From assembly GCA_964397415.1 (NCBI GenBank), contig CAYNIJ010000011.1:19197-83196 (forward strand): 64,000 bases of DNA. Reading direction: 5' to 3'. A model generated the notes under the pieces. The model saw only the letters and a list, made by a program, of their open reading frames with translations, did no database searches and was not told the DNA's origin. Positions 6,188-58,811 of the stretch are shown one piece after another. A program made the position numbers and the translations under genes. Each line of letters opens with the position of its first letter. Within the stretch, counting starts at the first letter, position 1. This DNA comes from an uncultured Ignavibacteriales bacterium (GTDB lineage: Bacteria > Zixibacteria > MSB-5A5 > GN15 > FEB-12).

Positions 6188-6191
6188 CCGC

Positions 6192-7244: not shown

Positions 7245-7290
7245 GCTTCGATAGTACAAAGCCGAACTCCGTCGTGCAAGCAAAACTCTG

Positions 7291-8707: not shown

Positions 8708-8762
8708 ACTGACTGGCAGATATTAGCTTCCCTTTTTCGGCGGGGGATATATATTCCCCGCT

Positions 8763-11065: not shown

Positions 11066-11122
11066 CCGGTTTAGCAGTCAATCCGGGCGTTTCACATACA
11101 CCCTCCTCATTTGGAGCAACGG

Positions 11123-37239: not shown

Positions 37240-37246
37240 AAGATCA

Positions 37247-37915: not shown

Positions 37916-38099
37916 GGGTGCGAACTCCTTCAGATTCATCGCGACGATCCAGCGGCAGGCGTGACCATCTGTCTACGCTTTTTTTGTCGAGCTTCAGTGA
38001 CCACCAGATCACCAGTACGAAGGCCACGACAAAGATGCACAGAGCCACAGCTGGCCAATATTCAAGACCAGGGATAGACCGGAGCATGTCAGATAACAT
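37908..38099 (-). CDS. ccoQ: CcoQ/FixQ-like small membrane subunit
   Basis: 63 aa with one TM helix (WPAVALCIFVVAFVLVIWW). Positioned between ccoNO and ccoP. Confidence 0.55.
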   Translation of the reverse strand: MLSDMLRSIPGLEYWPAVALCIFVVAFVLVIWWSLKLDKKSVDRWSRLPLDRRDESEGVRTHD

Positions 38100-38113
38100 A
38101 GCCCATTCCTTCC

Positions 38114-40276: not shown

Positions 40277-40279
40277 GCG

Positions 40280-40468
40280 TTATATCTCCGATGAAGGTTT
40301 CATATTATTCTCTGTATCAGTGGGAACCGACTTATCCTCGAAGAGCATTCGGATAGCCGGTGTATAGGTATCCTCGTACTGGCCGGACCGGACTGCCCAC
40401 CAGAAAGCGAACAGAAATCCGACTGCGACCAGAAGTGAAGCGGCGATAAGTATGATGATCACGTACAT
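40280..40468 (-). CDS. ccoS: cbb3 oxidase maturation protein CcoS
   Basis: Start set at ATG 40468 (MYVIIILIAASLLVAVGFLFAFWWAVRSGQYED), which is typical of CcoS and avoids overlap with the ccoI stop at 40470. Confidence 0.75.
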   Translation of the reverse strand: MYVIIILIAASLLVAVGFLFAFWWAVRSGQYEDTYTPAIRMLFEDKSVPTDTENNMKPSSEI

Positions 40469-40469
40469 T

Positions 40470-42890
40470 TCACCGTACTCCAAGACGTCGGGCCGCCAAC
40501 TGCGTGCCGATGGTCGAAAAAAGTATCACCGACACCGAACTGACCGGCATCAGGATCGCCGAAATCAGCGGCGACAGATTGCCGGTCGCGGCAAAATAGA
40601 GCCCGACCACGTTATAGAATATCGAGATCACAATACTCGCAAGGATCAACTGATGGCTTACCCTGGCCAATCGCACAAAACGATCCAGCCGTGAGAGCTG
40701 GGATGCTTCGAGAATTCCATCACAAGCCGGAGTAAAATTGATGGCATTGTCCGAGACCGCGATGCCAACCGAAGCGGCCCGCAACGCCCCCGCGTCATTG
40801 AGACCGTCTCCTACCATCAACACACGCTTCTTCTGTGAGGTAAGCGACTGAACGGAATTCAACTTGTCGTGAGGCGATTGATTGAAAGTTAGTGAGGATG
40901 ACTCACCAAACAAATGGGCAAGTCGTTCGCGGTCCCTGTCGTTGTCCCCGGACAAAACCGCAAGTTCATGCGTCTGTCGCAGCGACTGAATTGTATCATC
41001 CAACCCGTCGCGGTACCTGCTGGTCATGACGAAATGACCACGCAGGCGACCATCAATGGTCAGCCATGTGATTGTTCCCAATGTATAATTGTTGGGCTTG
41101 ACCAGCGACCTATCCTGATTCAACCAACTAAACCGTCCGAGGCGGAGTGTGTGGCCGTCGACAATCCCCTCAATCCCCTGGCCAGGCTCTTCTCTAAAAT
41201 TCTCTAAGACGAGAGGCTCCGCCGAGTATTCAGCATCGATTCTCCGGCTGACCGGATGGGTCGAGTGGCGAGCGAGCGATTTGACCATGCGGATCTCATC
41301 CTGAGTCAGGGGAGTGTCGCCTATGAATGACATGTCGTCAGGTTCGTTGGAGGTAAGAGTGCCGGTCTTGTCGAAGACGATCGTTTCGGTTGTCGCCATC
41401 TCCTCGACCACTGCCGTATTCTTCAAATAGAACTTATGGCGCCCCATAATGCGAAGGGCGGTTCCGAGGACAAATGGCGAGGAGAGCGCCAGCGCGCAGG
41501 GGCAGGCTACTATCAGTACAGCGGTCACGGCATTGATCGCGATATCCACGTCGCGACGAAGCCAGTAAACCGCGGTCGCTGCGGCTATGACGAGAACCGC
41601 AAGAGTGAAGTATCGACCAAAGGAGTCAGCCACCGATGTTACGGATCGCGATGATTCTTTGGCGAAAGCGGTATTGTTCCACAAACTGGTGAGGTAACTC
41701 TGCGATACCTCTTTAACCACTTCGAGCTCAATCGTGGTACCGGTCTGCCGTCCACCGGCGTAGACACTGTCGCCGCTCATCAGCGCGCGGGGCAGTGATT
41801 CGCCGGTGACAAAGCTATAGTCAATAAGCCCCCTCCCGTTGATCAAGATAGAGTCGGCCGGGATCAGTTCTTGATTGCGAACGATGATGCGATCCCCGAC
41901 TCGAAGATTGGTGACTGGAATAGAGACCTCACTGTCACCGGCCTTGCGCGTAATTGATGCTGGGAAGTAAGCTTTGTAGTCACGCTCAAAAGAGAGCTGT
42001 TCGTAGGTTCGATGCTGGAACAGCTTCCCCAACAGCAGGAAGAAAACAAGCCCGGAAAAGGAGTCGAGAAATCCCGGACCGGCGTTGAGCACAATGTCAT
42101 AGATGCTTCGACCGAACAGCGCGGCCATGCCAATCGCAAGGGGAACATCGATATTGACCATGCGCGAGCGGAGCGCGTACCAGGCGGATGTGAAGTATCC
42201 CCAAGCTGAGTAGAAGAGAACGGGGAGCGCCAGCAGCACCATTGTGACACGAAAGACCAGCGGAAATGCGGTCTGTTCTAATTCCCGCGAGTTTAGATAA
42301 TCCGGAAAACTGAGCAGCATGATATTGGCGAAACAGAATCCCGCGACGCCGATCTTAAGGTGCAGCGAGCGCTTTGGGTCGCGACGTTCTATCTTCTCGA
42401 AATGCTCAAGGCGAATATGCGGCTCGTAGCCAATACGACTAAGCAGTTCAACCAATTGGCGCAAAGAGATAGTCGTCTGGTCAAACTGAATGACCGCCTC
42501 ACGGCGCAGAAAATTGACCTGCGAACGGCTAACACCAGGATGCAGTCGATACAGATTCTCCAGCAGCCAGATACAGGACGCACAGTGAATTTGCGGGATG
42601 ATCAGGTTCACGCGGCTGATACGGCTATCGGAAAAGCTGATGAGTTGCTTCTGCACTTGGGGATCGTCGAGATAGGCGAACCTCGAAGTATCGATATCAG
42701 CCGGCGGCTTGATGCCGGGCGGCGTTTGCTGATTGTAATACGCGCTCAGTTCGGTAGAGTGAAGAAGTTTATATACCGCACGGCAGCCATTGCAGCAGAA
42801 AGTCGCCTCACCGACCGGCACGATCTGTTCGCGACAGGGTGCACCACAATGGGTGCAGGGTATTTCATCGGTTCGGGTCGCGCGCGCCAT
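40470..42890 (-). CDS. ccoI: copper-translocating P1B-type ATPase CcoI/FixI
   Basis: 806 aa. N-terminal Cys-rich metal-binding region (CTHCGAPC, CCNGC), HMA-like CASC, TM CPC motif (VACPCAL), DKTGTLT and GDGLNDAGAL. Confidence 0.9.
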   Translation of the reverse strand: MARATRTDEIPCTHCGAPCREQIVPVGEATFCCNGCRAVYKLLHSTELSAYYNQQTPPGIKPPADIDTSRFAYLDDPQVQKQLISFSDSRISRVNLIIPQIHCASCIWLLENLYRLHPGVSRSQVNFLRREAVIQFDQTTISLRQLVELLSRIGYEPHIRLEHFEKIERRDPKRSLHLKIGVAGFCFANIMLLSFPDYLNSRELEQTAFPLVFRVTMVLLALPVLFYSAWGYFTSAWYALRSRMVNIDVPLAIGMAALFGRSIYDIVLNAGPGFLDSFSGLVFFLLLGKLFQHRTYEQLSFERDYKAYFPASITRKAGDSEVSIPVTNLRVGDRIIVRNQELIPADSILINGRGLIDYSFVTGESLPRALMSGDSVYAGGRQTGTTIELEVVKEVSQSYLTSLWNNTAFAKESSRSVTSVADSFGRYFTLAVLVIAAATAVYWLRRDVDIAINAVTAVLIVACPCALALSSPFVLGTALRIMGRHKFYLKNTAVVEEMATTETIVFDKTGTLTSNEPDDMSFIGDTPLTQDEIRMVKSLARHSTHPVSRRIDAEYSAEPLVLENFREEPGQGIEGIVDGHTLRLGRFSWLNQDRSLVKPNNYTLGTITWLTIDGRLRGHFVMTSRYRDGLDDTIQSLRQTHELAVLSGDNDRDRERLAHLFGESSSLTFNQSPHDKLNSVQSLTSQKKRVLMVGDGLNDAGALRAASVGIAVSDNAINFTPACDGILEASQLSRLDRFVRLARVSHQLILASIVISIFYNVVGLYFAATGNLSPLISAILMPVSSVSVILFSTIGTQLAARRLGVR

Positions 42891-45323: not shown

Positions 45324-45974
45324 TCATTCGGGCTGGATGATCTTTTCACGAATGGCGAATCTGGTCAATTCGGCCACCGAGTGCAAATCGAGCTTATCCA
45401 TTATCCGCTTGCGGTGGGTCTCAATCGTCTTTACGGAGATATTAAGGCGTCCGGCGACATCTTTGGTGCTATTCCCTTCCGCGATTAGCTGGAGAACCTC
45501 CCGCTCCCGCGAAGTCAACAGATCCGAAGGCCCATTGACCGCCGCCGACAAGTTGACATAGTCATTGACCAGTACCCCGGTTATCCTGCTGCTCAGATAG
45601 ATATCTCCGCGCATGACGGATCTGATTCCGACCACTAATTCCTCGAGCGTAGAGTCCTTTAACAGGTACCCACGCGCGCCAGCCTTTATCGCCTCTGTAA
45701 CATAGTGACGATCTGAGTGCATAGAGAGAATGATGACCCGGGTGGCCACCTGCAGCTCCTGCAGTTTGCGCATTGTCTCGAGGCCATTGAGTCCAGGCAT
45801 TGAGATATCCAGGAGCAGGATATCCGGGCGCAGTCGCTCAACAAGTTGCGCGGCCGCATGACCATCCTCCGCCTCGCCGATTATCTGTAGTTCTCCCTCG
45901 TGTTCCAACATCGAACGTAGACCAGCGCGAAAAAGCAGGTGATCATCAGCCAGCACTAGTGAGATAGTAGACAT
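45324..45974 (-). CDS. NarL/LuxR-family response regulator
   Basis: Start at ATG 45974, in a TAATG overlap with the kinase stop. Canonical REC (LADDH..ILLLDISMPG..LLKD) plus a LuxR HTH (LTSREREVLQLIAEGNSTKDVAGRLNISVKTIETHR). Confidence 0.85.
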   Translation of the reverse strand: MSTISLVLADDHLLFRAGLRSMLEHEGELQIIGEAEDGHAAAQLVERLRPDILLLDISMPGLNGLETMRKLQELQVATRVIILSMHSDRHYVTEAIKAGARGYLLKDSTLEELVVGIRSVMRGDIYLSSRITGVLVNDYVNLSAAVNGPSDLLTSREREVLQLIAEGNSTKDVAGRLNISVKTIETHRKRIMDKLDLHSVAELTRFAIREKIIQPE

Positions 45975-47176
45975 TATACTTTTGCCGCTAGCGGCGCCTC
46001 CAATGTGATAATTGTCCCTGAAGCTTTCGCGGACTGGATCGACATTTCTCCACCCAATAGGCGAATCCGTTCCCGGACTGAGAAGAGACCGTATTTTTTG
46101 CTCACAGTCAGAGTTTGCAGCCACTGACTCGCGTCGAACCCGTGACCATTGTCGGCGATAGTGATCCGAATGCGGTTCTCTGAGCCGGATATGGTAACCG
46201 CGACTTTGCTGGCGCCGCTATGCTTCTGCGCATTGGTCAGCAGTTCCTTGACAGATCTAAAGAGCACGGCCGCATGTTCACCCTTCGCCGCGCCGTGAAA
46301 GCCGCTTCGATCCACAGTCACCCGTAGTGAGTGACTTTGCTGGAATTGCTCGCCAAGCCACTCAATCGCGGCAGGAAGCCCGAATTCGTGCAGGACCGGC
46401 GGACTTATCTGCACGGTCAGATTGCGAGTATAGGCGATCGTGCCATCAAGCAGCGACATGATCCGCGCGATCGAGTCCTCGAATCCGCAGAAGACCGCGT
46501 TACTCTGGAACTGCGACACCTGCATTTTGATGAACGCCAGCGCCTGCCCGATATGGTCGTGAAGCTCCGCGGCGATCTCCCGGCGTTCCCGGATCTCGGC
46601 CAGGGAGAGTTCGAGCGTCAACTGCTGCTGGAGGCGCTGAAACTCCTCGATCTTCCGGTTGGCCTCCTGTAATTCAGCGACCCTGTCGCTGAGAACTCGA
46701 TTGGCCTCCTGCAGTTGGGTCGTACGTTCCCTGACTTGCTGCTCCAGCGACTCGTGAGCCTGGAGGAGCGCATTGTCCGCCAATCTATGCTGAAAGTGCG
46801 AACGGAGCATCTCGGCAAGCGAAGTAATGAGGTCGCGTTCTTCGGACAAGAACGGTCCTTCGATTGCCGCCGGCCGCTCCGCCGTATAGGTGACTTCGAT
46901 CCCGCCAGTCTCCTGGCCTACAACAAAGACGGCCGTCTGCACCCAGAGGGACGACCGGAAGCCGGGAGTGGCAACGCTGAGGTCGCGGAACCAAATGCGG
47001 GCCTCTGTGATCTCCGGGTACTGCCATGCGGGCGGAAGCAGGGCAAGGATTGCGGTGAGGAGTTCGCGGTCCGGTGTCGTAGGGTTCTGAAGCAGACGCG
47101 CCGTACCGTGAAGCGCAGTCAATTCCTTGACGCGCTCCTGCAGATTGTGCAGTAGCAGTTCCGGGGTTTCCGTCAC
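45974..47176 (-). CDS. cytoplasmic sensor histidine kinase (HisKA_3 + HATPase_c) with unassigned N-terminal sensor domain
   Basis: GTG start and no TM helices. Coiled coil, then H-box AAELHDHIGQALAF and an ATPase domain (..NAQKHSGA..DNGHGF..GGEMSI). Confidence 0.8.
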   Translation of the reverse strand: MTETPELLLHNLQERVKELTALHGTARLLQNPTTPDRELLTAILALLPPAWQYPEITEARIWFRDLSVATPGFRSSLWVQTAVFVVGQETGGIEVTYTAERPAAIEGPFLSEERDLITSLAEMLRSHFQHRLADNALLQAHESLEQQVRERTTQLQEANRVLSDRVAELQEANRKIEEFQRLQQQLTLELSLAEIRERREIAAELHDHIGQALAFIKMQVSQFQSNAVFCGFEDSIARIMSLLDGTIAYTRNLTVQISPPVLHEFGLPAAIEWLGEQFQQSHSLRVTVDRSGFHGAAKGEHAAVLFRSVKELLTNAQKHSGASKVAVTISGSENRIRITIADNGHGFDASQWLQTLTVSKKYGLFSVRERIRLLGGEMSIQSAKASGTIITLEAPLAAKV

Positions 47177-47374: not shown

Positions 47375-50300
47375 TTACTTCAGGAGTACCATCTTCTTCG
47401 TCGCGGTGAAGTTATCCGCCACCAGACGATAGAAGTAGACACCCGACGCGTACTGCGTGGCATCGAAATCGATCTTCTGGTAACCGGCTTCGGTCCGTTT
47501 GTGCCAGTTGGTGACCTCCTGGCCCAGGACGTTGTAGATGGTCAGCGTCCATTCGCCAGACTTCGGCAACGCGAACTCGATCGTGGTGACCGGGTTGAAC
47601 GGGTTCGGATAGTTCTGCGACAGCGAGTATTCGCTCGGCAGCAGACTGATCTTCGCGTCGACGACATAGCCGTCGTAGCTGCCCAATTCAACCGACTTCA
47701 CGATCTTCGCGCTCTTCAGATACATCACCGGACCGGACTCAATGAAGCCCTTACCAGTTGAGGAGTAGATGAGAACTCGCGTCACTTTGCCGTCATACGC
47801 GGTTTTCAACTCCATCTGAGAAGCGGATTCATGCAGCGTGGGCTCAACCTGACCTTCGAGCACGAGACTCATCGCTCCGATTCGTGCGTCTGTCTTGCCG
47901 ATAGACAGGACACCATCGCTGACCGCGACTTCTGCCTGGTATGCGGCTTGCGGACTCAGCTTCGGTGTCATAGGAATGTCGCCAACCACCGCGCGGATCA
48001 GGTAAACAAGGTCAGCCACGGTTAGCACGAGACCATCGGCGTTGACATCAGTCGCCGCCACTTGACCCGCCTGGTTGACCGTGAAGACGGTTAAACCGCG
48101 AATAAAGTAGTTGGAGAACAGCACTGCGTCAGCGATCTCATAGGCAATTCCATTCAAGTTGACATCGGCACGGGCGTCGATCGAATCGGCGCAGACGATA
48201 TCGACTCCACCATTCTGGAAGTCGATACAACGCTGTGGCCCGGGCTTGCCGGGGCCAGGGCTTTCAAGGCAATAATCCGGAGCGCCCACGTAGCCCGGCA
48301 GGCCAAAGCTGTTATCCTGAATCTGGTTGTGCTCAAAGTCATACACACGACGGGAGATCCAGAGTGTGTCGCCGGCCACCGACGAAAGAGCGTTGTCCGT
48401 ACATTCGATCCAATAGAACTGGATAGGGGCATACATGCACTCCAGAGTGCGATCGTTTGAGACCATAAAGTCGATCTGGGCCATTGAACCGACCAGACCC
48501 TGGAAGAAGCACCCGGGGTGATATGCGCCATTATTGGTCTCGGCCATGCCGACGATACGTATGAGACCGTCAGGACAACCGTCACAATTGCCGCTGGCTC
48601 CATAACGGAAAGTGAAATACTCCCAACCGCACTGCTCAAACAGCGGGCCAGGTTTCACGCCCATTGGCGTAAGCGCGGTCGGATCGTAAGCAATGAGGAA
48701 GTCAAATCCGCCGAGCGGTTTCCCCGAACCATTCATAAAGATGTTGACTGTCTCATGCTGCCCTTGCAGCGCATTGTGAGTCTTCTCGATCTCCACATGC
48801 ATGCACTCATCAACCGTTACTTCGATGCATACTGTATCCACCGTCTGCAGGCCGCAGGCATCGGTCGCTGTTACGTACAGACAATACGTGCCTTTGGCTG
48901 CCACATTGAAACAGACCTGACCGGTTGATGAATTGTAAGTGCCCATCGGCGCCACGTTCACCGAACTCAGATTATTGTCCGGATCGGAGATGGCGATGTC
49001 AAAGCAGAGCGGTCCCACCTGTTCCATGTACGCGGTGAAATTAGGCGGCCCGACAACTACAGGTCGGTTGTTGTAATCAAGAGTTATGACCGTCGTGTCA
49101 TAGTCAACGGCCCCACAGGAATCCGTGGCCTTGATTACGAAGCTATACTGACCGGTCGGCATATCGCCATAGACTGCGTCAAAGCAGATCTTCTTGGTCA
49201 CCGGATTGTAGGTTCCGAGCGGCGACAGCAATTCGACAGACTGCAGATTGAGATCTTCGTCAGCAGCCGCGACATCCCAACAGATGGTCTTGTTGGCACA
49301 GAGGAAGACCGTGCTGTCCGGACCAGAATTGACCACTGGCGGAGCATTGAGCTTGAAGACCACAGTAAAGGAGTCACGACAAGTCGCGCCGCATGCGTCA
49401 GCGCACTCGATGACCACTTTTCTGACTTCGTCAACCGACGGGGTGTACTGCCACTGGCCGCCGCTTATAGAGCCGGGACCGGAAACGATCTGGCAGTTGA
49501 CGAAATTGCCATCAACGTCCGTGGCGGACACCGGCAAGCTGACCTGTGTCGGTGTGCACTGGAAGTATGTAGTGTTAGGCGGAACCTGGCACACGGGCGG
49601 CGAATTGAGCGTCACCTGTATGACCACCGTATCCTGAACTGACACCCCACACTTGTCGACCACCCGCAAAATGAAGGTGTAGGTCCCACTGGTCGCCGGA
49701 GTGAAGCAGATCGTACCGGCACTGTAGGAACCAGTTCCGGACACAACCTTAACGCTGTCGAGATTATTATCCGGATCTGAACCGGATGCCGGCCAGCAGA
49801 TCGGATTCGGAGTACAGACAAAAAGCGTCTGGTCAGGGCCCGCGTTCGCTACTGGCGGGCGGTTCTGATTGACGGTCACGTTGATAGTATCGCGGTCGAC
49901 CGCCCCACAGCCATCGGTCACCTGCACAATGACTGTGTACACGCCAGTTGCTGGAGGAGTGAAGCAGACGGTATTCGCGACCGTGTCAATAGTGCCTCCC
50001 GAGATCACTTGCTCAGCCGTCACATTGTTATTCGGATCAATGACAGTGTACGGCAGACAGATCTGAGTCGACGCGCATTGGAACCGGGTGGTATCATTTC
50101 CAAGTGCTATGATCGGAGCAACGTTCTGCGTCACGTTGTAGGTCATCGCGACCGTATCAGCCGCGCCACATGAGTCGACAACCGCGGCGGTCACCGCATA
50201 AATCCCGGCGGAGTTCGCGGTGAAGCACCAGAGACCACCGGGGGTAACCGTACCGCTACCGCTCAAACGCGACCAGTTCAGGGTGCCACCGTTCACGTCC

Positions 50301-53300
50301 GATGCGGCGAACTGATAACAGATATTAGTTGAAGCACAGATGAAAGTGTCTTTCGGCGATATCGGATCCACAGCTACCGGTCGCGAATTGATGGTCACAT
50401 TCACTGTCACCTGACAGGTGTCACTGCCACAATAATTGCTGGCAATGATCGTCAACGTATACGCTCCGGATGTCGCTGGCGTAAAGCACACATTACCGCC
50501 GCTGTAGGTGCCCGTCGGCGAGACTGTGACAGTCGCGCTACCCGGCGTGACCGTGACCGGCACGCAGATCTGCTGCGACGAGCAGAGGAAGAAGTTCTGA
50601 GTGCCTGGACAGACAACCACCGGAACTTCTCCGATGGTCACTGTCACGTGAATAGTATCCTGGTCGGTCGCACCACAAGCATCGGTGGCTTTCACAATGA
50701 ATGTGTACATACCGGCCGAAGCTGGCGAGAAGCAGACCGTATTGGCGCCTGTATTGATCGTTCCGCTGCCTGACACCAGCTCTTCAAGCGTGACATTGGC
50801 GTTCACGTCGGTAAGCGTATACGGCAGACAGGCCGAACCACCCGGACAGAGCGCGAGTGTCGTATCGTTGCCAAATGCTATGGTCGGCGCCGAGTTAATA
50901 GTCACATTGTAAGTTAGGGTGACAGTATCAGAGGCTCCACACGGATCAGTGACTGCCGCAAGAACCGAATACGCGCCAGTCGCCCCGGCGGTGAAACACC
51001 ACTGGCCGGTCGGCGAGACCGTACCGCTGCCGGTCAACTTACTCCAGGTGAGCGTGCCGCCGTTGATATCGGAGGCCGAGAACTGGTAGCAGATATTAGC
51101 AGAAGCACAAACAAAGGTGTCCTTCGGCGTCGCTGGATTCACCGCGACCGGTCGTGAATTGATCGTCACGTCAGCGACCACCTGGCAGGTGTCCGCGCCA
51201 CAAGTTGTCGCAGCGATGACCGTGAGCACATAATGGCCCGATGTGTCTGCCGGGAATACAATATTCCCTGATGAGTACGAGCCGATGGGTGAGACCGTCA
51301 CAACCGCTCCGGCTCCCATCACGCCAATCGGGACCGAGACATTGCCTGGAGCGCACACGAAGACTGTTTGTGTTCCCGGACAGTTCAACTGGGCTGCCTG
51401 GCCGATTGTGACCAGGAAGCTGATGTTACAGGTGTCCGCTCCACAAGAAGACGACGCTATCACACGAGCCGTATAGGTTCCACTAGTATCGGCATTAAAG
51501 CAGAGCTGTCCGCCGGAATACGTGCCCAGTGTTGTGGTGACAGTCGCCCCTGGAGGCGTTATAGCCAAGGTCTGACAGACTTGGCCGGCACCGCAAAGCG
51601 AGGCGAGAATTGGTCCCGTTGGACATGTGATATCTGCGAAAGTACCGAATGTAATGATCGCGCGAATTGTATCCCGATCACTCAATCCGCATGAATCGGT
51701 GACCGAAACTATGAATTCATACGTCCCGGCAGTGGTCGGTGTGAAACAGACCTTGTTGTTGGCGGAGTCAAGCGTACCGAACCCGGCAGTCAAGACCTCA
51801 GTCAACTTCGCCATACCGTTCGGATCGGATACCGAGTAGCTCATGCACACCTGTTGTGGAGTGCAGAGGAAGAGACTGGTATCCGCGCCAAAGGCGAGTG
51901 ACGGAGCACTGTTCAAAGTAACGGTGATGTTCACCGTGTCCTGATCCGAAGCGCCGCACTGATCGACAGAACGAAGGATGAATGTATACACACCCGAACT
52001 GGCCGGCGTGAAGCAGATGGCGCTGCCATTGTACGTTCCCGGTCCGGAGATCAACTTGCAACTATCGAGATTGCCATTGACATCTGTACACGACACGGGC
52101 CAGCAGATCCAGTCTGGAGTGCACTGGAAGACCGACTGGTCTGGACCGGCGTCGGCAACCGGCGCCGTGTTGATCGTGACGTTAAACGTCAAGTCGCACG
52201 TGTCCGCGCTGCAGGCTGTCGTCGCGATCACTCGGGCATTATAGGTGCCTGATGTCGGAGCGTTGAAACACAACTGGCCACCAGAGTACGTTCCGAGAGT
52301 CGTCGTGACTGTCGCTCCTGCCGGCGCTATCGTCAACGGCTGGCAAACAGTGCCAGGGGCACAGAGGAACTTGGCTAACGGCCCGGTCGGACAGGTAATA
52401 TCCGCAAAAGCTCCGAATGTAATGATCGCTCTGATGGTGTCGCGATCGAACGCGCCACAGGAATCAACGGCGCTGACCACAAAGCTGTACGTGCCCGACG
52501 AAGTCGGCGTAAAGCAGACTTTGTTGTTCGCGGTGTCGATGGTGCCAAAGCCTTCAGTCAGGAACTCCGATATTTTCGCCATGCCATTCGGATCTGAGAC
52601 CGAGTAATTCATGCAGACCTGCGTAGGGGTGCACATAAAGACGCTGGTATCCGCTCCGAGGGCGATCGTGGGAGCACCATTCAAAGTAACGGTGATCTGC
52701 ACGGTATCGACGTTCTGCAAGCCGCAGGCGTCAGTCGCCGTCAGCACGAACGCATATGTACCGGATGAAGCCGGAGTGAAACATATCTGACCACCGGAGT
52801 ACGTACCCGGTCCAGTCATAGTACAACTGCTCAAGTTAGCGTCGGGATCCGAGCATGAGGCTGGCCAGCATATTGATGTAGGCGCGCACTGGAAGATGCT
52901 CTGATTCGGACCCGCGTTGGCAACGGGGGCTGAATTGATCTTCACGTCGACATTGATCGTGTCCATCGCGAAGAGACCGCATTCATCCGTCACCTTGACA
53001 ACGAAAGGATAGATCCCGGTGGCGGTCGGCGTGAAGCACACGCGATTGTTGCCGGTATCCAGAGTGCCGCTGCCAGAGACAAGCGTCACCGTGCGAGGAC
53101 GCGGATCATTGGGGTCAGAGGCTGAGTATGACACGCATATCTGCTGAGGCGAGCAGAGGAAGAACTGGCCGTAGTTTGCAAAGGCGATACTCGGTGCCTG
53201 GTTGATCTTAAACTCAACCGTGAAGTCAGACTGGCACGTCGCACCACAGGCGTCCGTACAGAGAACTGTCACGTTCACGATCTGACTGGCAATAGGCGTA

Positions 53301-56300
53301 TAGCACCAGTTGCCACCTGACAGCGCACCCGGGCCGGAAAGGATCTGACACGAGGTCAGATTGCCATTGACATCCGTCGCACCAACCGGCAAACAGACCT
53401 GCGCCGCGGCGCACTGGAAGATTGTCGTGTCATTGGGTACCTGGCAGATCGGAGCGGAGTTGATCGTGACATTGATGTTCACCGTATCCAGATCAGATGC
53501 TCCACACCCGTCAACAGCCTGGAGGATGAATGTATACAGGCCGGTTCCCGATGGCGTGAAACAGATCTGGCTGCCATTAAAGGACCCCGGTCCGGAGATC
53601 AGCGACGAACTGGCGAGATTTCCGTTTATGTCGGAGGTCGAGGCCGGCCAACAGATCTGTGTCGGCGAACACTGGAACACCGTTTGGTCCGCGCCGGCAT
53701 TGGCGACCGGAGCCGTGTTCAAAGTGTAATAGATAACGACTGTATCGTAACGAATCACTCCACACGCATCCGTCGCCTTCAAAACGAACTCGTAGTTCAA
53801 CGTGCCGGTCGGGGTGAAGCAGATCTGGCTGCCGTTGAAAGTACCCGGGCCAGTTATCATTACAACCGATGCGAGGTTATTGTCGACATCGGTCGCGCCG
53901 GCAGGCCAGCAGATCGGGGCCAGGCCGCACTGGAAGATCGTTTGATCTGGTCCGGCATTCACGACTGGCGCATGATTGATCTGGACAGTGACGTTGATCG
54001 TGTCGAGATCGGTGGCGCCACACGAGTCGGTCACCTGAGCGACAAATGTCAGCATACCGCCTACGCCGGCGGTGAAACAAAGCTGATTCGGATTCAATCC
54101 AATGGTTCCACTGCCCGATACGATGCTCACTCCCTGAACATTATTATTTGGATCACTCACCGCGAATGGCAGGCAAACCGTGGAAGGAGTACAAACGAAG
54201 ATAGTAGTGTCGTTACCCAGGGCGATGGTCGGCGCGGAGTTCATGGCGACATTGTAGGTCATACTGACGGTATCAGCGGCGCTGCATGAGTCCGCGACTT
54301 TCGCCACAATACTGTAAGTACCACTTGAACTCGCGGTGAAGCACCACTGACCGGACGAACTGACTGTTCCCGCACCGGACAGCCTGCTCCACGTCAAAGG
54401 GCCGCCATTGACATCCGAGGCCGTAAACTGGCGACAGATGTTCGCGGTCGAGCAGACAAACGTATCAATGGTGGCCGGTGGATTAGTCGCCACAGGGGCT
54501 GAGTTTATGACCACGTTGACCTGAAGATTACAGGAATCGACTCCGCATGGTGTGGTCGCCTTGACCTTCAGGATATAGGTGCCGGAAGTATCCGCGTTAA
54601 AGCAGACATTTCCTGACGAGTAGGTTCCGATCGGAGTGATCTGCCAGGTGGCACTCATCGCGCCGCCTACCGGTATGCAAATCTGTCCAGGGGCACAGAT
54701 GAATTTCGTCTGAGTACCCGGACAGACCAGGTTAGGATCTGGGGTGATCGTAATGTTGAATGAAATGTCACACGTATCAGCACCGCACGGAGCAGTAGCG
54801 ATAAGCCTTATGACATAGTGCCCGGCGGTGTCGGCTGTAAAGCAGAGATTGCCGCCAGAATATGTTCCATAGGACGCAGTAACCGTCGCCGTCGGTGGCG
54901 TGATCGCTATGGCCTGACAAACCTGACCGCCTGCGCAACCAGTAATGTTGATTGCCGATGGCGGACAGGTGATCGTCGCTACCTGACCGAATGATACGAT
55001 CGCATTGATCGTGTCACGATCCGAGGCGCCGCACGAATCGGTTACCGACGTTATGAACTGGTAAGTGCCGGAAGAAGCCGGGGTAAAGCAGATTCGGTTG
55101 TTGACAGTATCTATAGTGCCATACCCCGAGATCATTGACTCTGTCAATTTCGCCAGTCCCTGCGGATCAGACACGCTATAGCTCAGGCATATCTGCTGCG
55201 GAGTACAAGTGGAGACAGTCGTATCATTGCCGAACGCAATGGTTGGGGCTCCGTTGATAGACACATTGTAAGTCAGAGTAGTCGTATCCGCCGCGCCGCA
55301 GGAATCGGCAACCATGACCACCACTGAATATGCGCCATTGCCGCTTGGGGTGAAACACCAGTTGCCACCGGTCGTGACGGTCCCTGCGCCTGATAGTTTG
55401 GTCCAGGTCAATGGATTGCCATTGGGGTCTGTCGCCGTAAACAAGTAGCAGATCTGGCTGTTTGTGCACAGGAACAGGGCCGCTGGGGTCATCGGATTGA
55501 CAGCAACCGGTGCTCCGTTGAGCCCGATAGTATAGGTGATCGATGTCGTGTCTTTGAGACCGCACGGATCAGTTACTGTTACTGTCGCGGTGTAGTTTCC
55601 GGGAGCAGCGGGCGTGAAGCAGTAGAGTCCGCCCGACGTGATTGACCCGGGACCGGAGAGCATCGCCCAGGTAAGTGTCCCGCCGTTGACATCCGATGCA
55701 GTGAACGTGTAACACTGCTGTGTAAGGCTGCACAAGAACTTGGACTGTGCAGGCGGATTCGTAGCCACAGGCGCACTGTTGATTGTCACTGTAATATTGA
55801 ACGTATCCTGGTCGAATGCGCCGCATGAGTCGGTGGCCCGCACTATGAAAGTGTTCGTCCCCGACATGGTCGGAGTGAAGCAGACCTGGTTTCCAACCAG
55901 GCTCCCCGGACCGGAGATCAGTTGCTTGGTCTGAATATTGTCGTTCGGGTCTGAGAAAGAGATCGTTTTGCAGATCTGACTGGCGACACACTGGAAGACA
56001 CTTGAGTCAGCGCCGGCGTTGACAACCGGCGGCTGATTCATGGTCACGGTTACAAACATTGTGTCGGCGCCGGAGTGGGTGCAATGGTCGCTGGCAAATA
56101 CGATCACGCGATAAGTTCCGGCAGTATCCGCCGGGAAGCAGATGTCAGCGGCTGACGGCGAAGGAGCATATCTGGCGGCCACCGCATCGATGCGGAAGGT
56201 GCCGGTGAGACCCTTGATGTACACTTGATTGAAAAGCACATGGTCGGGCAGGTCCACCGTGATACCGCCCGTTCCGGAACCGCTTGAACTTGCCGCGATC

Positions 56301-57667
56301 GTCAGATTGGTAGTGTAGACCGATATGCCACTTCTCTTCAGGATGATCTGAGCAGTCCCGCCGACACTGGCATCGGTGAAAAGCACCAGATCGACCGATT
56401 GGCCGTTGCAGGTGGTAATGTTCGAGACGAATTGTCCGGTGATAAAGGCGCCAACTGCGAAGTCGACAGAACCATCGCCGTTGTATCCATCCGGTCCGCC
56501 TGCACCTACCAGCGTGTAGGTCATATCTGTCGGCGCGCTCAGCAATTGCCCGCCGTATTGCACATTGCCGGAGCTATTGGAGAAAGTCCCGTAGGAGGCA
56601 ATGGAGTTAAAGAAGTAGAAGTTGGGTAGAGTTACGGAAACGCCCGAGGTCACGCCGACTGGCGGCACGAAGTCTGTCGCAACATACAGTGGCTTGCCGG
56701 GGAAACCTCCGCCGACCTGAGTAACGGTGCCACCGAGTTGACGAACTTTGTTGACCTCGTCAAAATTATATCTGTTTCCACCATACATTCCGATATTGCT
56801 GTAGATCGTGTCAATATCGCAATTCGGGTCAGTCACGGTTACGGGGAGACAGACTGTGTCGGGACCGCATAGAAAGACCGTAGAATCCGCTGGAAGCGAC
56901 ACAAAAGGCGCGAGACCGGCGGTGTTCGCTACGATGACTCCCTGGCAATCAACCGACGAGGAGAGACTGACTCGCTGCGTTGTATCGCAAGCACTGTTTG
57001 GTGGTTGTGCCGGCGCAGGTTGAGACTCTCCATCAAATCTGACTTTCAGTGAATAGTTCCCTGGAGTTACCGGTATCTGGAGAGTCGCGCAGGCTATGCC
57101 GTTGGCGTCGGTGTATGCGGAATCGTCGGCCGAACCATCATTACTGCAGTTGCCTGGATTAAAGTAGAACAACACCTTGCGATTGGGGAGAGGATTATCA
57201 ACCCCGGCCGGACAGCTCTGCGTTAAGAACGCGCAGATATCGACAGTATTGCCTGCGCACAGCGTGTCGTTGGCGGACACGGTCATCTCTATTTTCGAGT
57301 TTGCGTCGGTAAATGTGGTCGTTGCCACAATGCCGGATGTCAGCCCGATGGCGGTCAGGAGGAATGACTGGTCAACGGCTTCATTTGGCACGATCCAGTG
57401 TGTCTCGAAGTTCCCTGAAGCATCGGCCCACACATACCACGGCCCGTCACTGTCTCCCACACCCGGGTTGAGGATGTTGGTTATCTCAACTGAGATCTGT
57501 TCCAGCGGGGCAAATCCGTTCCCCTTGATAATGACGGAGTCGCCGGGAGCATAATCCGACGTGTCGGTTTCCACGATTGTTGCCGACACTGTCGCGGCGA
57601 AAGCCGACGGACTGAACAGGCAGCAACAAACGAGAATGGCGAAACAGAAAAGGATCAGTGACCGCAT
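47375..57667 (-). CDS. giant (3,430 aa) secreted repeat protein: ~29 four-Cys Ig-like modules + cohesin-like + dockerin-like + T9SS C-terminal sorting domain
   Basis: Start set at ATG 57667, giving signal peptide MRSLILFCFAILVCCCLFSPSAFA. Single uninterrupted frame. See the module features and findings below. Confidence 0.85.
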   Translation of the reverse strand: MRSLILFCFAILVCCCLFSPSAFAATVSATIVETDTSDYAPGDSVIIKGNGFAPLEQISVEITNILNPGVGDSDGPWYVWADASGNFETHWIVPNEAVDQSFLLTAIGLTSGIVATTTFTDANSKIEMTVSANDTLCAGNTVDICAFLTQSCPAGVDNPLPNRKVLFYFNPGNCSNDGSADDSAYTDANGIACATLQIPVTPGNYSLKVRFDGESQPAPAQPPNSACDTTQRVSLSSSVDCQGVIVANTAGLAPFVSLPADSTVFLCGPDTVCLPVTVTDPNCDIDTIYSNIGMYGGNRYNFDEVNKVRQLGGTVTQVGGGFPGKPLYVATDFVPPVGVTSGVSVTLPNFYFFNSIASYGTFSNSSGNVQYGGQLLSAPTDMTYTLVGAGGPDGYNGDGSVDFAVGAFITGQFVSNITTCNGQSVDLVLFTDASVGGTAQIILKRSGISVYTTNLTIAASSSGSGTGGITVDLPDHVLFNQVYIKGLTGTFRIDAVAARYAPSPSAADICFPADTAGTYRVIVFASDHCTHSGADTMFVTVTMNQPPVVNAGADSSVFQCVASQICKTISFSDPNDNIQTKQLISGPGSLVGNQVCFTPTMSGTNTFIVRATDSCGAFDQDTFNITVTINSAPVATNPPAQSKFLCSLTQQCYTFTASDVNGGTLTWAMLSGPGSITSGGLYCFTPAAPGNYTATVTVTDPCGLKDTTSITYTIGLNGAPVAVNPMTPAALFLCTNSQICYLFTATDPNGNPLTWTKLSGAGTVTTGGNWCFTPSGNGAYSVVVMVADSCGAADTTTLTYNVSINGAPTIAFGNDTTVSTCTPQQICLSYSVSDPQGLAKLTESMISGYGTIDTVNNRICFTPASSGTYQFITSVTDSCGASDRDTINAIVSFGQVATITCPPSAINITGCAGGQVCQAIAITPPTATVTASYGTYSGGNLCFTADTAGHYVIRLIATAPCGADTCDISFNITITPDPNLVCPGTQTKFICAPGQICIPVGGAMSATWQITPIGTYSSGNVCFNADTSGTYILKVKATTPCGVDSCNLQVNVVINSAPVATNPPATIDTFVCSTANICRQFTASDVNGGPLTWSRLSGAGTVSSSGQWCFTASSSGTYSIVAKVADSCSAADTVSMTYNVAMNSAPTIALGNDTTIFVCTPSTVCLPFAVSDPNNNVQGVSIVSGSGTIGLNPNQLCFTAGVGGMLTFVAQVTDSCGATDLDTINVTVQINHAPVVNAGPDQTIFQCGLAPICWPAGATDVDNNLASVVMITGPGTFNGSQICFTPTGTLNYEFVLKATDACGVIRYDTVVIYYTLNTAPVANAGADQTVFQCSPTQICWPASTSDINGNLASSSLISGPGSFNGSQICFTPSGTGLYTFILQAVDGCGASDLDTVNINVTINSAPICQVPNDTTIFQCAAAQVCLPVGATDVNGNLTSCQILSGPGALSGGNWCYTPIASQIVNVTVLCTDACGATCQSDFTVEFKINQAPSIAFANYGQFFLCSPQQICVSYSASDPNDPRPRTVTLVSGSGTLDTGNNRVCFTPTATGIYPFVVKVTDECGLFAMDTINVDVKINSAPVANAGPNQSIFQCAPTSICWPASCSDPDANLSSCTMTGPGTYSGGQICFTPASSGTYAFVLTATDACGLQNVDTVQITVTLNGAPTIALGADTSVFMCTPTQVCMNYSVSDPNGMAKISEFLTEGFGTIDTANNKVCFTPTSSGTYSFVVSAVDSCGAFDRDTIRAIITFGAFADITCPTGPLAKFLCAPGTVCQPLTIAPAGATVTTTLGTYSGGQLCFNAPTSGTYNARVIATTACSADTCDLTFNVTINTAPVADAGPDQSVFQCTPDWICWPVSCTDVNGNLDSCKLISGPGTYNGSAICFTPASSGVYTFILRSVDQCGASDQDTVNITVTLNSAPSLAFGADTSLFLCTPQQVCMSYSVSDPNGMAKLTEVLTAGFGTLDSANNKVCFTPTTAGTYEFIVSVTDSCGLSDRDTIRAIITFGTFADITCPTGPILASLCGAGQVCQTLAITPPGATVTTTLGTYSGGQLCFNADTSGTYTARVIASSSCGADTCNISFLVTIGQAAQLNCPGTQTVFVCAPGNVSVPIGVMGAGAVVTVSPIGSYSSGNIVFPADTSGHYVLTVIAATTCGADTCQVVADVTINSRPVAVNPATPKDTFVCASANICYQFSASDINGGTLTWSKLTGSGTVSPTGQWCFTAGATGAYSVLAAVTDPCGASDTVTLTYNVTINSAPTIAFGNDTTLALCPGGSACLPYTLTDVNANVTLEELVSGSGTINTGANTVCFSPASAGMYTFIVKATDACGATDQDTIHVTVTIGEVPVVVCPGTQNFFLCSSQQICVPVTVTPGSATVTVSPTGTYSGGNVCFTPATSGAYTLTIIASNYCGSDTCQVTVNVTINSRPVAVDPISPKDTFICASTNICYQFAASDVNGGTLNWSRLSGSGTVTPGGLWCFTANSAGIYAVTAAVVDSCGAADTVAMTYNVTQNVAPIIALGNDTTRFQCASTQICLPYTVIDPNNNVTAEQVISGGTIDTVANTVCFTPPATGVYTVIVQVTDGCGAVDRDTINVTVNQNRPPVANAGPDQTLFVCTPNPICWPASGSDPDNNLDSVKVVSGTGSYSAGTICFTPATSGTYTFILRVVDKCGVSVQDTVVIQVTLNSPPVCQVPPNTTYFQCTPTQVSLPVSATDVDGNFVNCQIVSGPGSISGGQWQYTPSVDEVRKVVIECADACGATCRDSFTVVFKLNAPPVVNSGPDSTVFLCANKTICWDVAAADEDLNLQSVELLSPLGTYNPVTKKICFDAVYGDMPTGQYSFVIKATDSCGAVDYDTTVITLDYNNRPVVVGPPNFTAYMEQVGPLCFDIAISDPDNNLSSVNVAPMGTYNSSTGQVCFNVAAKGTYCLYVTATDACGLQTVDTVCIEVTVDECMHVEIEKTHNALQGQHETVNIFMNGSGKPLGGFDFLIAYDPTALTPMGVKPGPLFEQCGWEYFTFRYGASGNCDGCPDGLIRIVGMAETNNGAYHPGCFFQGLVGSMAQIDFMVSNDRTLECMYAPIQFYWIECTDNALSSVAGDTLWISRRVYDFEHNQIQDNSFGLPGYVGAPDYCLESPGPGKPGPQRCIDFQNGGVDIVCADSIDARADVNLNGIAYEIADAVLFSNYFIRGLTVFTVNQAGQVAATDVNADGLVLTVADLVYLIRAVVGDIPMTPKLSPQAAYQAEVAVSDGVLSIGKTDARIGAMSLVLEGQVEPTLHESASQMELKTAYDGKVTRVLIYSSTGKGFIESGPVMYLKSAKIVKSVELGSYDGYVVDAKISLLPSEYSLSQNYPNPFNPVTTIEFALPKSGEWTLTIYNVLGQEVTNWHKRTEAGYQKIDFDATQYASGVYFYRLVADNFTATKKMVLLK
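47378..47625 (-). other. T9SS type-A C-terminal sorting domain
   Basis: ..LSQNYPNPFNPVTTIEF..LTIYNVLGQEV..ASGVYFYRLVA..KKMVLLK at the extreme C-terminus (TIGR04183-like pattern). Confidence 0.85.
47975..48170 (-). other. dockerin-like module (two EF-hand-like segments)
   Basis: DVNLNGIAYEIADAVLFSNYFI ... DVNADGLVLTVADLVYLIRAVVG. Confidence 0.6.
48390..48810 (-). other. cohesin-like module
   Basis: VEIEKTHNALQGQHETVNIFMNGSGKPLGGFDFLIAYDPTALTPMGVKPG..IRIVGMAE..MAQIDFMV follows the cohesin strand pattern as I recall it. Confidence 0.55.
48815..56150 (-). repeat. tandem array of ~29 coding repeats (~250-280 nt each) with ~768-771-nt three-module super-repeats
   Basis: The motif ..C-F-T-P-x3-G-x-Y.. 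recurs 29 times (with variants). DNA stretches about 75% identical by eye recur at offsets of 768 nt (51842 vs 52610) and 771 nt (50377 vs 51148). Confidence 0.8.
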
Positions 57668-58053
57668 AGCTGAGGTCCTTCTATGGTTTGCAAACGTGTT
57701 TTTCTTTGTGGAAAATGAAGTTCCGGGGTGGTAACCGAGGCGAAGAGAGTGTGAGTTCCGTGACTCAGCGCAGCCTTCGTCGGATCTTGGTGCTGACACA
57801 CCTGTTCGATGTGAGATCGAATCTACGCAATCGTAATAACGCGACAATGTCCCCTCCTGGGGTTCGGCGTCAACTACACCGGTTGTAAGCGTACTGGTGT
57901 GCGCGACGGTGACTACGGATCGTCAGCAATTCGCCGACGCCGTAAATGTCATTCACGCCAATACGGTTTGTCATGAACTTTTGATATAATGGATTGCGAG
58001 ATATAACGCTGAATTGCTGTACCAGTCGACTACGGAATCGAAGTCACTGATTG

Positions 58054-58082
58054 ATTACATGGATTTCCGCACTGGTAGTCAA
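58054..58082 (-). promoter_or_regulatory. candidate promoter for the giant gene (would give ~380-nt 5' UTR)
   Basis: On the minus strand: TTGACT-N17-TGTAAT. This is the only reasonable sigma70-like match I found in the spacer; weak evidence. Confidence 0.2.
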
Positions 58083-58480
58083 TGAGCAAGGTGCAATCGT
58101 TAGTATTACCTCTCGTCAATCACCTAAAATCTTGTTGAGTTAGTAAGGCGGAAGAGGTTCGAAAACTGCGAGCAAAGGATTCTCACGCAGGTCCGCCCCG
58201 AGCACATTATAAGGAAACCCAATTTTGGCGTATTGTCAAGCAATTTTCGCTGTTTGCCCCGAGTATGAATCTGGTACGCGCGGGTCCACGAATACGGGTT
58301 TGCCGAGGGTGCGATCCGAAGCTGGGTTCTTGCGCAGGTCAGCTCGTATTGAGGAATCACCGAGAACCCAAGAAGTGGAGTCCAAGGTTGGCGTCAATCG
58401 GTACTGTCAAGTCTGATAGCCAGGTCTCGTAACTTTAGGTGGTACTTGGTGATGATGCACTTCAAGCAGGGAAATCTGTC

Positions 58481-58603
58481 GGCGCTCAGGTCCAGGGGCC
58501 GGGGCGGGTAAGCTGTGTTCCAAGAGCTTTGAGTAAGGATTATGTGCGGTTCGGCGCGGAGTTCGCAGGCAATACGCCCCGGCCCCTGGCTCCCTGATGC
58601 GCC
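58481..58603. other. 123-nt element closed by a 25-bp GC-rich interrupted stem (candidate structured RNA or palindromic element)
   Basis: 58492-58506 (CCAGGGGCCGGGGCG) is the perfect reverse complement of 58575-58589. The stem is extended by TCAGG/CCTGA and GGCGC/GCGCC. The interior holds two small hairpins (AAGCT..AGCTT and TGCG..CGCA). Confidence 0.3.
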
Positions 58604-58683
58604 GAATGGATTATTACACAATCGAGTGTTCCGTGCGAATCATAATTGATTGGCGGCTATTTTGGGACTGTTCCAGACTCGCA

Positions 58684-58722
58684 TAAAAGAAAAGGGCCCC
58701 TCGGTTACACAACCGAAAGGCC
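58684..58722 (-). terminator. rho-independent terminator after tRNA-Asn
   Basis: On the minus strand: GGCCTTTCGGTT-GTGT-AACCGAGGGGCC (12 bp including two G-U pairs) followed by CTTTTCTTTTAT. Confidence 0.7.
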
Positions 58723-58738
58723 TGATCTACAACTTAAG

Positions 58739-58811
58739 CTCCCCCGGCTGGACTCGAACCAGCGACCCGCTGATTAACAGTCAGCTGCTCTACCGACTGA
58801 GCTACAGGGGA
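58739..58811 (-). tRNA. tRNA-Asn (anticodon GTT)
   Basis: The minus strand reads TCCCCTG-TA-GCTCAGTCGGTAGAGC-A-GCTGA-CTGTTAA-TCAGC-GGGTC-GCTGG-TTCGAGT-CCAGC-CGGGGGA-G. The cloverleaf folds by hand and is close to E. coli tRNA-Asn. CCA is not encoded. Confidence 0.9.

Follow-up and report, generated by a model that had tools for sequence, protein, structure and literature searches.

The question raised by this locus is what purpose is served by the very large protein encoded at positions 47375-57667 (minus strand) of a 64,000-nucleotide (nt) stretch of a Zixibacteria genome (GenBank contig CAYNIJ010000011.1), hereafter called the window. The best reading is that this giant protein is a non-catalytic, adhesin-type surface fibre of a Zixibacteria bacterium. 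Its C-terminal end carries a cassette in which a cohesin-fold module (Coh), a dockerin-fold module (Doc) and a beta-sandwich module (X) are followed by a type IX secretion system (T9SS) C-terminal sorting domain (CTD). The anatomy and the fold assignments are held with high confidence. The whole mechanism, in which a T9SS-exported fibre would become part of a surface network that includes docking in trans, is favoured to a slight degree. The cassette consists of the following features, with residues given in amino acids (aa):

Positions 48197..48805 (minus strand): divergent cohesin-fold module, aa 2955-3157, assigned with AlphaFold (AF2) and Foldseek, below threshold in Pfam.
Positions 47951..48196 (minus strand): dockerin-fold module, aa 3158-3239, assigned with AF2 and Foldseek, with two Ca-loop-plus-helix segments.
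Positions 47639..47938 (minus strand): X module, aa 3244-3343, all-beta by DSSP of the model, no family assignment.
Positions 47378..47632 (minus strand): type-A T9SS C-terminal sorting domain, aa 3346-3430, PF18962 and TIGR04183.

The original prediction for this DNA placed a cohesin-like module, marked by the hallmark GKPLGGFDFLIAYDPTAL, in front of a dockerin-like pair. The hallmark is present in the giant protein, and the cohesin fold was borne out by structural comparison. The AF2 model of aa 2950-3430 had a predicted local distance difference test score (pLDDT) of 92 and a predicted template modelling score (pTM) of 0.65. When this model was compared with the PDB in Foldseek, the top ~25 matches were cohesins (E 1e-8 to 1e-6, probability 1.00, template modelling (TM) score by target 0.62-0.83), and the best of these was 6kgd_A (TM 0.83, root-mean-square deviation (rmsd) 2.9). 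The modelled domain is a predicted nine-stranded beta-sandwich jelly roll that is superposable on solved cohesins. At the sequence level, a 90-sequence family profile identified 12 cohesin or cohesin-like chains in the PDB at E 0.04-0.7 and no dockerin, and phmmer against PDB sequences gave only marginal cohesin and dockerin matches. The cassette cohesin is ~60 aa longer than solved cohesins. In addition, the cassette contains eight nearly invariant Cys, seven within the cohesin and the eighth (C3159) at the start of the dockerin.

The dockerin is joined to the cohesin without a linker, as Coh ends at aa 3157 and Doc starts at aa 3158. Its Ca-loop segments run from D3168 to D3180 and from D3207 to D3219, and the DVNLNG.. 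and DVNADG.. dockerin-like segments are both present. The dockerin segment modelled alone with AF2 had a pLDDT of 88 and helices at residues 23-39, 44-49 and 62-73. In a Foldseek search of 350,542 chains with this model, 17 of the 19 matches were dockerins (rmsd 2.1-3.6, identity 20-33%), with TM scores by target of 0.67-0.80 for 16 of them and 0.39 against a 138-residue double-dockerin chain, 8x39_B. The Foldseek probabilities were 0.60-1.00 and the E-values 0.03-2.5, which are modest because the domain is small (~70 residues). The specificity of the match list was taken as decisive for the fold call. The model contains a duplicated loop-helix (F-hand) pair in a three-helix fold that is superposable on solved dockerins, and the two-segment dockerin-like pair of the original prediction is thus upheld as a predicted fold. 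In 90 family members both loops have D or N at positions 1, 3 and 5 and Asp at position 13, conserved at 93-100%. The canonical loop positions 1, 3, 5 and 6 are present (74-100% conserved), but the distal invariant Asp is at position 13 and not at 12.

Neither module passed the Pfam check that had been proposed for it. For Cohesin (PF00963), the whole protein scored 21.0 bits (E 4e-4) against a cut-off of 24.1, the match covering only positions 3-55 of the 139 in the hidden Markov model (HMM); the C-terminal piece scored 18.3 bits and the relatives 19-23 bits. For Dockerin_1 (PF00404, threshold 22.9 bits), no match to the window protein was found even at E<=10, its best PDB sequence match with phmmer being 3ul4_B at E 0.2; one relative, P0110, reaches 20.8 bits. 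The C-terminal 474 aa were also scanned separately against Pfam and NCBIfam at E<=10, and, apart from the T9SS CTD, no model covers the cassette above its cut-off in either the whole protein or this piece. Because both modules miss the Pfam thresholds, their assignment rests on fold and not on Pfam membership. On the models they are cohesin-fold and dockerin-fold modules of a divergent subtype, homologous in fold and motif to the known families without being Pfam members.

The remaining two cassette modules agree with what had been anticipated. A separate domain, claimed at ~115 aa, lies between the dockerin and the CTD; it is ~100 aa and all-beta, and the local X HMM showed that this beta-sandwich follows each Doc in multi-unit relatives. 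The CTD, with its NYPNPFNP...GVYFYRL motif, scored above the curated cut-offs of both PF18962 (43.1 bits, cut-off 27) and TIGR04183 (42.7 bits, cut-off 23) at the extreme C-terminus (aa 3353-3427 of 3430), as expected for the type-A T9SS sorting domain that had been called there. The family profile also matches the solved CTDs 8glk_D and 8glj_D. Zixibacteria is a member of the Fibrobacterota-Chlorobiota-Bacteroidota (FCB) group. Reviews place the T9SS in the FCB superphylum (PMC12398890, PMC9170169).

The rest of the secreted protein is made up of a head and a long rod of immunoglobulin-like (Ig) modules:

Positions 56915..57595 (minus strand): N-terminal head, aa 25-251, no Pfam family, weak filamin-type Ig similarity at about aa 150-225.
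Positions 56045..56914 (minus strand): first Ig module, split into an N-half (aa 252-317) and a C-half (aa 495-541) by a nested insert.
Positions 56186-56716 (minus strand): the nested insert of ~177 aa, aa 318-494, inside the first Ig module.
Positions 48818..56038 (minus strand): 28 tandem Cys-rich Big_9/PKD-type Ig modules, aa 544-2950, from Pfam and the module HMM.

The original prediction had counted about 29 modules with a four-Cys signature. A module HMM, built iteratively from the giant protein itself, identified 28 complete tandem modules of 74-90 aa each and one split module, giving 29 in total. In the split module, aa 252-317 correspond to HMM positions 3-55 and aa 495-541 to positions 48-84. 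The four-Cys signature applies to part of the rod: exactly four Cys were found in 18 of the 28 tandem modules, and the others carry 5-8. Pairwise identity among the tandem modules is 22-75% (mean 38%), and about five subtypes can be distinguished. The suggestion that the module might be undescribed was not borne out, as Pfam Big_9 (PF17963) matched 16 stretches of the repeat region above threshold (211 bits, E 2.4e-63). The Pfam models K319L-like_PKD (E 2.4e-28) and PKD_4 (E 3.6e-22) were also matched, Y_Y_Y was significant too, and the PPVANAGPDQ-type linker of the repeats aligns to the KIAA0319L PKD structure 6nz0_Z. The NCBIfam tandem-95 repeat (NF012211) reached 53.5 bits (E 1.8e-14), under its 90-bit cut-off, so the repeats are related to that family and are not members of it. 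Judged by these sequence matches, the repeats are Ig domains rich in Cys and of the PKD/Big_9 type, of which giant bacterial adhesins are usually built.

In the whole-protein scans no Pfam or NCBIfam model covers the head, and among PDB sequences it has weak matches to filamin chains only (E 0.014-0.2). Three homologues of the head were found, at 50-53% identity, in Zixibacteria and Calditrichaeota-labelled metagenome-assembled genomes (MAGs). The nested ~177-aa insert has no Pfam match and no PDB sequence match. It is conserved across all three orthologues, and may be where the head binds its ligand.

The distribution of the cassette was examined with a 395-aa Coh-Doc-X query from which the CTD was excluded. 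This query matched at least 587 clusters at 90% identity, with 40-62% identity over the whole length, and nearly all of the named clusters were Zixibacteria. Related copies occur in MAGs labelled Ignavibacteria and Calditrichaeota. An exhaustive profile search returned at least about 2000 clusters at 50% identity (E<=1e-30), some of which may lack the cohesin; the cassette is carried by all of the best 150 of these clusters. A scan of genome contigs identified the full cassette at 8 of 80 loci, the rest being dominated by CTD-only matches. On these sequence comparisons, Coh-Doc-X-CTD appears to be a large, Zixibacteria-centred family of hundreds to thousands of proteins.

Local sub-HMMs for Coh, Doc, X and CTD were run on 141 representatives of the family. 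One Coh and one Doc were found in 112 of these and several in the other 29, and at least two of the giant protein's Ig modules were present in 35. For example, P0149 and P0159 have 25-26 Ig modules plus the cassette in about 3,100 aa, and L001 holds a 3,115-aa open reading frame (ORF) with the shared architecture. Other representatives have multiplied the modules unequally. P0127 and P0132 are (Coh-Doc-X)x3-CTD, P0131 is (Coh-Doc)x3-Doc, P0164 is a signal peptide followed by Coh x4-Doc, and P0125 is Coh x4-Doc-X-Coh-Doc-X-Doc-X-CTD, in which one Doc follows X and not a cohesin. Since module numbers are unequal across relatives, the modules are separable, as in scaffoldins. Mean pairwise identity among paralogues is 66% for Doc, 51% for CTD, 50% for Coh and 35% for X; the dockerin is thus the most conserved module, which fits one shared partner. 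In 20 sampled members the partner domains were all binding-type folds (fn3, Big_5, PKD/Big_9, HYR, HYR_4C, SBBP propeller with DUF7948, Laminin_G_3, SdrD_B and He_PIG), and no catalytic domain was found among them.

One of the loci is an array of four adjacent, same-strand cassette genes (L008 6813-11416) in the complete Zixibacteria genome OY760907.1 (record range 1324260-1344129). These genes encode Doc-X-CTD (281 aa), Doc-X-CTD (296 aa), Coh-Doc-X without a CTD (434 aa) and Coh-Doc-X-CTD (518 aa). For the dockerin proteins without a cohesin (6813-7658 and 7669-8559), a cohesin would have to be supplied by a different polypeptide. Within the array the genes overlap at their start and stop codons (8559/8559 and 9860/9863), and the signal peptides of the encoded proteins are almost identical and lipoprotein-like (..LLSCSD..); it is unusual for a lipobox-like signal to occur in a protein with a T9SS CTD. 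At another locus a 798-aa protein (L006 4486-6879) adjoins a standard cassette protein. It has, by eye, a canonical-looking cohesin stretch at its start, and the local HMMs identified one Ig module, a shortened cassette cohesin (positions 3-146), a dockerin and a CTD. This mixed architecture suggests module shuffling.

From these features a mechanism can be proposed for the giant protein. It would be exported by Sec to the periplasm and would then fold oxidatively, with 4-8 Cys per module in the rod and 8 conserved Cys in the cassette. By analogy with Bacteroidota, the CTD would direct T9SS passage and retention at the cell surface, so that the cassette would form the cell-proximal end of the fibre. 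Ca-dependent binding in trans is predicted between the dockerin of one cassette protein and the cohesin of a second. A non-covalent surface network would arise as many of the cell's T9SS cargo proteins dock with one another and with scaffoldin-like relatives that have several cohesins. The Ig rod would hold the N-terminal head away from the cell, at a length on the order of 100 nm if each module contributes ~4 nm, which is our own estimate.

The original prediction had proposed that the protein self-associates or recruits dockerin-bearing partners. Relatives with Coh x4-Doc and (Coh-Doc-X)x3 arrangements, together with the cohesin-less Doc-X-CTD proteins, give comparative support to this proposal. 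The closest functional precedent for a protein with one Coh and one Doc is Amy4 of the Ruminococcus bromii amylosome, which also carries both modules, has a dockerin that recognises its own cohesin, and autoaggregates through them (PMC4611034). The giant protein differs from this GH13 amylase of a Gram-positive species in having no catalytic domain, in being T9SS cargo and in its membership of a family whose paralogues and orthologues, hundreds to thousands in number, carry both modules.

Several points weigh against the surface network with docking in trans. First, the zero-length Coh-Doc junction, the recurrence of the Coh-Doc-X unit and the pTM of 0.65 also fit a rigid intramolecular unit. 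Second, neither module reaches its Pfam gathering score. Third, phmmer opens a one-residue gap in both loops of the solved dockerin 3ul4_B; given this gap and the Asp at position 13, Ca binding and partner recognition may differ from the canonical. Fourth, no T9SS core gene was found among the scanned ORFs of the 64-kb window, and to our knowledge the chemistry that anchors cargo after secretion is not known outside Bacteroidota. Lastly, the conserved face of the cohesin, which speaks for docking, is provisional. In solved cohesins strands 8-3-6-5 form the dockerin-binding sheet, and in the cassette cohesin mean conservation was higher for strands 3, 5 and 8 (0.77-0.83) and, less clearly, for strand 6 (0.62) than for strands 1, 2, 4 and 7 (0.44-0.58); these strand numbers were assigned by chain order and not by superposition.

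The main alternative follows from the first of these points. Coh, Doc and X could be locked in cis as a rigid, Ca-stabilised intramolecular stalk that takes no part in docking between proteins and serves only as a spacer or as a secretion-competent base beside the CTD. No linker separates the last cohesin strand from the first Ca loop, the ratio is exactly one to one in the 112 representatives noted above, P0127 and P0132 have duplicated the triad as a whole, and the pTM is high for four supposedly independent domains. However, four tandem cohesins with a single dockerin exist (P0125 and P0164), the dockerin comes after X rather than after a cohesin in P0125, and Doc-X-CTD proteins are secreted without any cohesin in the OY760907.1 array. 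Such unbalanced architectures indicate that the modules fold, and are retained, independently of one another. For these reasons the stalk is considered unlikely.

A role as a cellulosome-like enzyme scaffold, in which the cohesin recruits dockerin-bearing hydrolases for polymer degradation, is less likely than the stalk and is regarded as improbable. A T9SS-CTD scaffoldin with tandem cohesins and dockerin-bearing enzymes has been proposed in another FCB phylum (PMC8542988). Also, a 701-aa protein with a C-terminal Dockerin_1 domain (E 1.3e-12) and a weak beta-helix match is encoded 5 kb from a giant homologue in the Zixibacteria genome LS998015.1 (L082 16166-18271). Its canonical dockerin (DANxNGxxNILDVSFLINYLY) is not matched by the cassette dockerin HMM; it therefore belongs to a different specificity class, which argues against the enzyme scaffold, and at least two dockerin classes exist in Zixibacteria. 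The window protein does not have the makeup of a cellulosome scaffoldin, as it has a single cohesin, with no carbohydrate-binding module (CBM) and no catalytic domain among its Pfam matches, and none of the 20 sampled cassette proteins had a catalytic domain either. By eye, a dockerin-like pair at the N-terminus and a stretch resembling a cohesin can also be seen in the 701-aa protein. It was considered as a direct partner of the giant protein and rejected, as its dockerin was unmatched by the cassette Doc HMM.

It has also to be asked whether the ligand of the cassette is a protein at all. The cohesin-fold jelly roll, the X module or both could bind lipopolysaccharide (LPS), capsule or exopolysaccharide and so keep the cargo attached to the cell once the CTD has been removed; the dockerin would then do no more than stabilise the structure by binding Ca. 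The cassette is always beside the CTD at the cell-proximal end, no mode of anchoring T9SS cargo is known outside Bacteroidota, and beta-jelly-roll folds of this kind are also used by CBMs. However, the best structural matches are cohesins specifically and not CBMs, the high conservation of the dockerin is hard to explain for a passive stabiliser, and tandem internal copies exist far from the CTD. A glycan anchor therefore has a low probability.

That the gene is an assembly chimera, or a pseudogene read through as a single frame, is very improbable, even though misassembly is common for giant repetitive genes and the giant homologue in LS998015.1 is broken into two overlapping frames, because the identical product is found on an independent contig, the repeats are too diverged for collapse, the relatives P0149, P0159 and L001 share the architecture, and the ribosome-binding site (RBS), signal peptide and CTD are all at the proper ends. 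The features of the gene are as follows:

Positions 47375..57667 (minus strand): whole coding sequence, 3,430 aa plus stop, stop codon at 47375-47377.
Positions 57676..57682 (minus strand): Shine-Dalgarno-like AGAAGGA, 8 nt upstream of ATG 57667, read from the sequence.
Positions 57596..57667 (minus strand): Sec signal peptide, aa 1-24, consisting of MRS, a hydrophobic core and AFA with cleavage before A, by sequence inspection only.

The single uninterrupted minus-strand frame that had been described was confirmed: it is 10,293 nt including the stop and encodes 3,430 aa, within a stop-to-stop frame of 47375..57847 (minus strand). An upstream TTG start at 57847 was rejected, as ATG 57667 has an RBS and is followed immediately by a signal peptide. 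This peptide, MRSLILFCFAILVCCCLFSPSAFA with cleavage before A, begins right at the ATG 57667 product and has a positively charged N-region, a hydrophobic core and an AFA cleavage site; by inspection, then, the claim of a cleavable signal peptide was borne out. The 3,430-aa protein recurs, identical, on the independently assembled Logan contig SRR13723394_80980, where the same histidine kinase lies downstream of it as in the window. The ORF is authentic, and chance is excluded because of its strong homologues and this identical copy. Tandem Repeats Finder (TRF) detected no DNA-level tandem repeat in the giant gene; with modules only 22-75% identical, repeat-collapse misassembly is thus unlikely. 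In the LS998015.1 homologue (L082 1872-11500) the overlapping frames are 1872-5564 and 4361-11500, and only the last 499 aa are annotated (TRIP_C80001). This split is due to a frameshift or sequencing error, or else the gene is a true pseudogene.

The surface network proposed for the giant protein may be extended to the phylum. In this broader proposal, which is tentative and has somewhat less than an even chance, a non-enzymatic surface assembly of cohesins and dockerins, coupled to type IX secretion, would exist throughout the Zixibacteria, with its cargo forming a self-assembling mesh on the outer membrane. Hundreds to thousands of adhesin-type cargo proteins, each with one Cys-rich cohesin and one dockerin with 13-residue Ca loops, would polymerise or would dock on multi-cohesin scaffoldins and on small Doc-X-CTD and Coh-Doc-X proteins. 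Such an assembly would correspond, in a diderm and on the basis of the T9SS, to the cellulosome architecture of Gram-positive bacteria, and would serve adhesion and not catalysis.

Several known systems can be compared with the giant protein. The adaptor and anchoring scaffoldins of clostridial cellulosomes (C. thermocellum CipA, A. cellulolyticus ScaB and R. flavefaciens ScaA/ScaB) likewise combine cohesin and dockerin folds in one secreted polypeptide, with tandem cohesins as in the relatives described here and an extra beta-sandwich X module accompanying the dockerin, and the structural matches include 4fl4, 4uyp, 2ccl and 5m2o. The Zixibacteria cassette differs from these in its diderm host, in anchoring by a T9SS type-A CTD and not by S-layer homology (SLH) domains or sortase, and in its linkerless arrangement of one Coh and one Doc with X after the dockerin and not before it. 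In addition, each Ca loop exceeds its counterpart in 3ul4_B by one residue, the cohesin has ~60 extra residues, eight Cys are conserved, the Pfam scores are sub-threshold, and no enzymes or CBMs were found in the family members sampled.

Within the FCB group, the predicted scaffoldin of Ca. Stygibacter (Cloacimonadota) is similarly from a candidate phylum and from MAGs only, large (3,755 aa) and non-catalytic, and it combines cohesins with a conserved C-terminal domain for surface attachment (PMC8542988). It differs in having tandem cohesins that InterPro recognises, CBM2/CBM3 and paired dockerin-bearing enzymes (PMC8542988), whereas in the Zixibacteria protein the only cohesin is sub-threshold and is accompanied by a dockerin and an Ig-repeat rod, and a CBM is absent. 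The non-cellulosomal cohesin of Archaeoglobus fulgidus, 2xdh, was the structural match at rank 23 (E 1.7e-6, TM 0.71); this protein is archaeal, lacks a T9SS and an Ig rod, and is related at the level of fold only (14% identity). SprB of Flavobacterium johnsoniae is a giant, non-catalytic, Ig-repeat T9SS adhesin with a type-B CTD, and it is not known to have a cohesin or dockerin. Like SprB and the Big_9/PKD-repeat adhesins, the giant protein is a multi-thousand-residue, non-catalytic Ig-repeat filament with a C-terminal T9SS signal; unlike SprB, it has a type-A CTD and the Coh-Doc-X cassette.

The general kind of system is thus already known, because cohesin-dockerin modules outside cellulosomes have been described, as has a CTD-bearing multi-cohesin scaffoldin in Cloacimonadota MAGs (PMC8542988). 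What is new is the divergent, unmodelled subtype with its fixed Coh-Doc-X-CTD arrangement, and its very large expansion on non-catalytic, adhesin-type T9SS cargo in Zixibacteria. In the literature searched, Zixibacteria does not appear in any paper together with dockerin, T9SS or type IX secretion, nor does Latescibacteria with cohesin and dockerin, and dockerin was unmentioned in the top-ranked papers for dockerin with related candidate phyla.

The cohesin-dockerin interaction is a textbook high-affinity modular protein glue that has been studied almost entirely in Gram-positive cellulosomes. The subtype described here is recognised by neither Pfam nor NCBIfam and is spread over many surface proteins of an uncultured phylum. 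Trans binding of the modules, if it takes place, would account for the surface organisation of T9SS cargo outside Bacteroidota and for the role of many giant 'hypothetical' proteins in sediment and groundwater metagenomes, and it would provide a source of new orthogonal Coh-Doc pairs for protein engineering. Annotators gain a concrete cassette to model, where the sole current name is 'T9SS type A sorting domain-containing protein.'

The window itself is ordinary chromosome. It contains LPS and 3-deoxy-D-manno-octulosonic acid (KDO) genes, LptC, LysRS, M48 and M1 peptidases, fumarase and Amt. The LysRS shares 89% identity with a Zixibacteria protein, and its top matches, where named, are all from Zixibacteria. 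No second cassette protein was found among the window ORFs, and PADLOC gave no matches. The giant gene is followed directly downstream, on its own strand, by a HisKA_3 histidine kinase (45974-47176), with a promoter-like site nearby at 47262-47234, and by a LuxR/GerE-type response regulator (45324-46124). Upstream of the giant gene is tRNA-Asn (GTT) at 58738-58811 (minus strand), which has a near-consensus promoter at 58904-58877 and is followed by a terminator-like hairpin at 58722-58695. Between this hairpin and the ATG of the giant gene lies ~1 kb of apparently non-coding DNA (57668-58694), in which no Rfam family was found at gathering score. An HPr kinase and two SurA-like chaperones are also upstream.

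Three other loci of the window can be mentioned. An McsB-like ATP:guanido phosphotransferase (21802-22881) is immediately upstream of a ClpC/ClpB-type AAA+ chaperone (22955-25402) with Clp_N and UVR motifs, and this arginine-kinase/ClpC arrangement is better known from Firmicutes. An 806-aa ORF at 25484-27904 (minus strand) has a Ca-binding thrombospondin type-3 repeat at about aa 560-600, weak MtsC/Omp28-related similarity and no other matches. Lastly, in a cbb3 oxidase cluster at 35788-42890, CcoN and CcoO are fused in one 720-aa ORF (38114-40276, COX1 plus FixO); the cluster also contains CcoP (37247-37939), a FixG-like ferredoxin (35788-37302) and a Cu-type P-ATPase (40470-42890).

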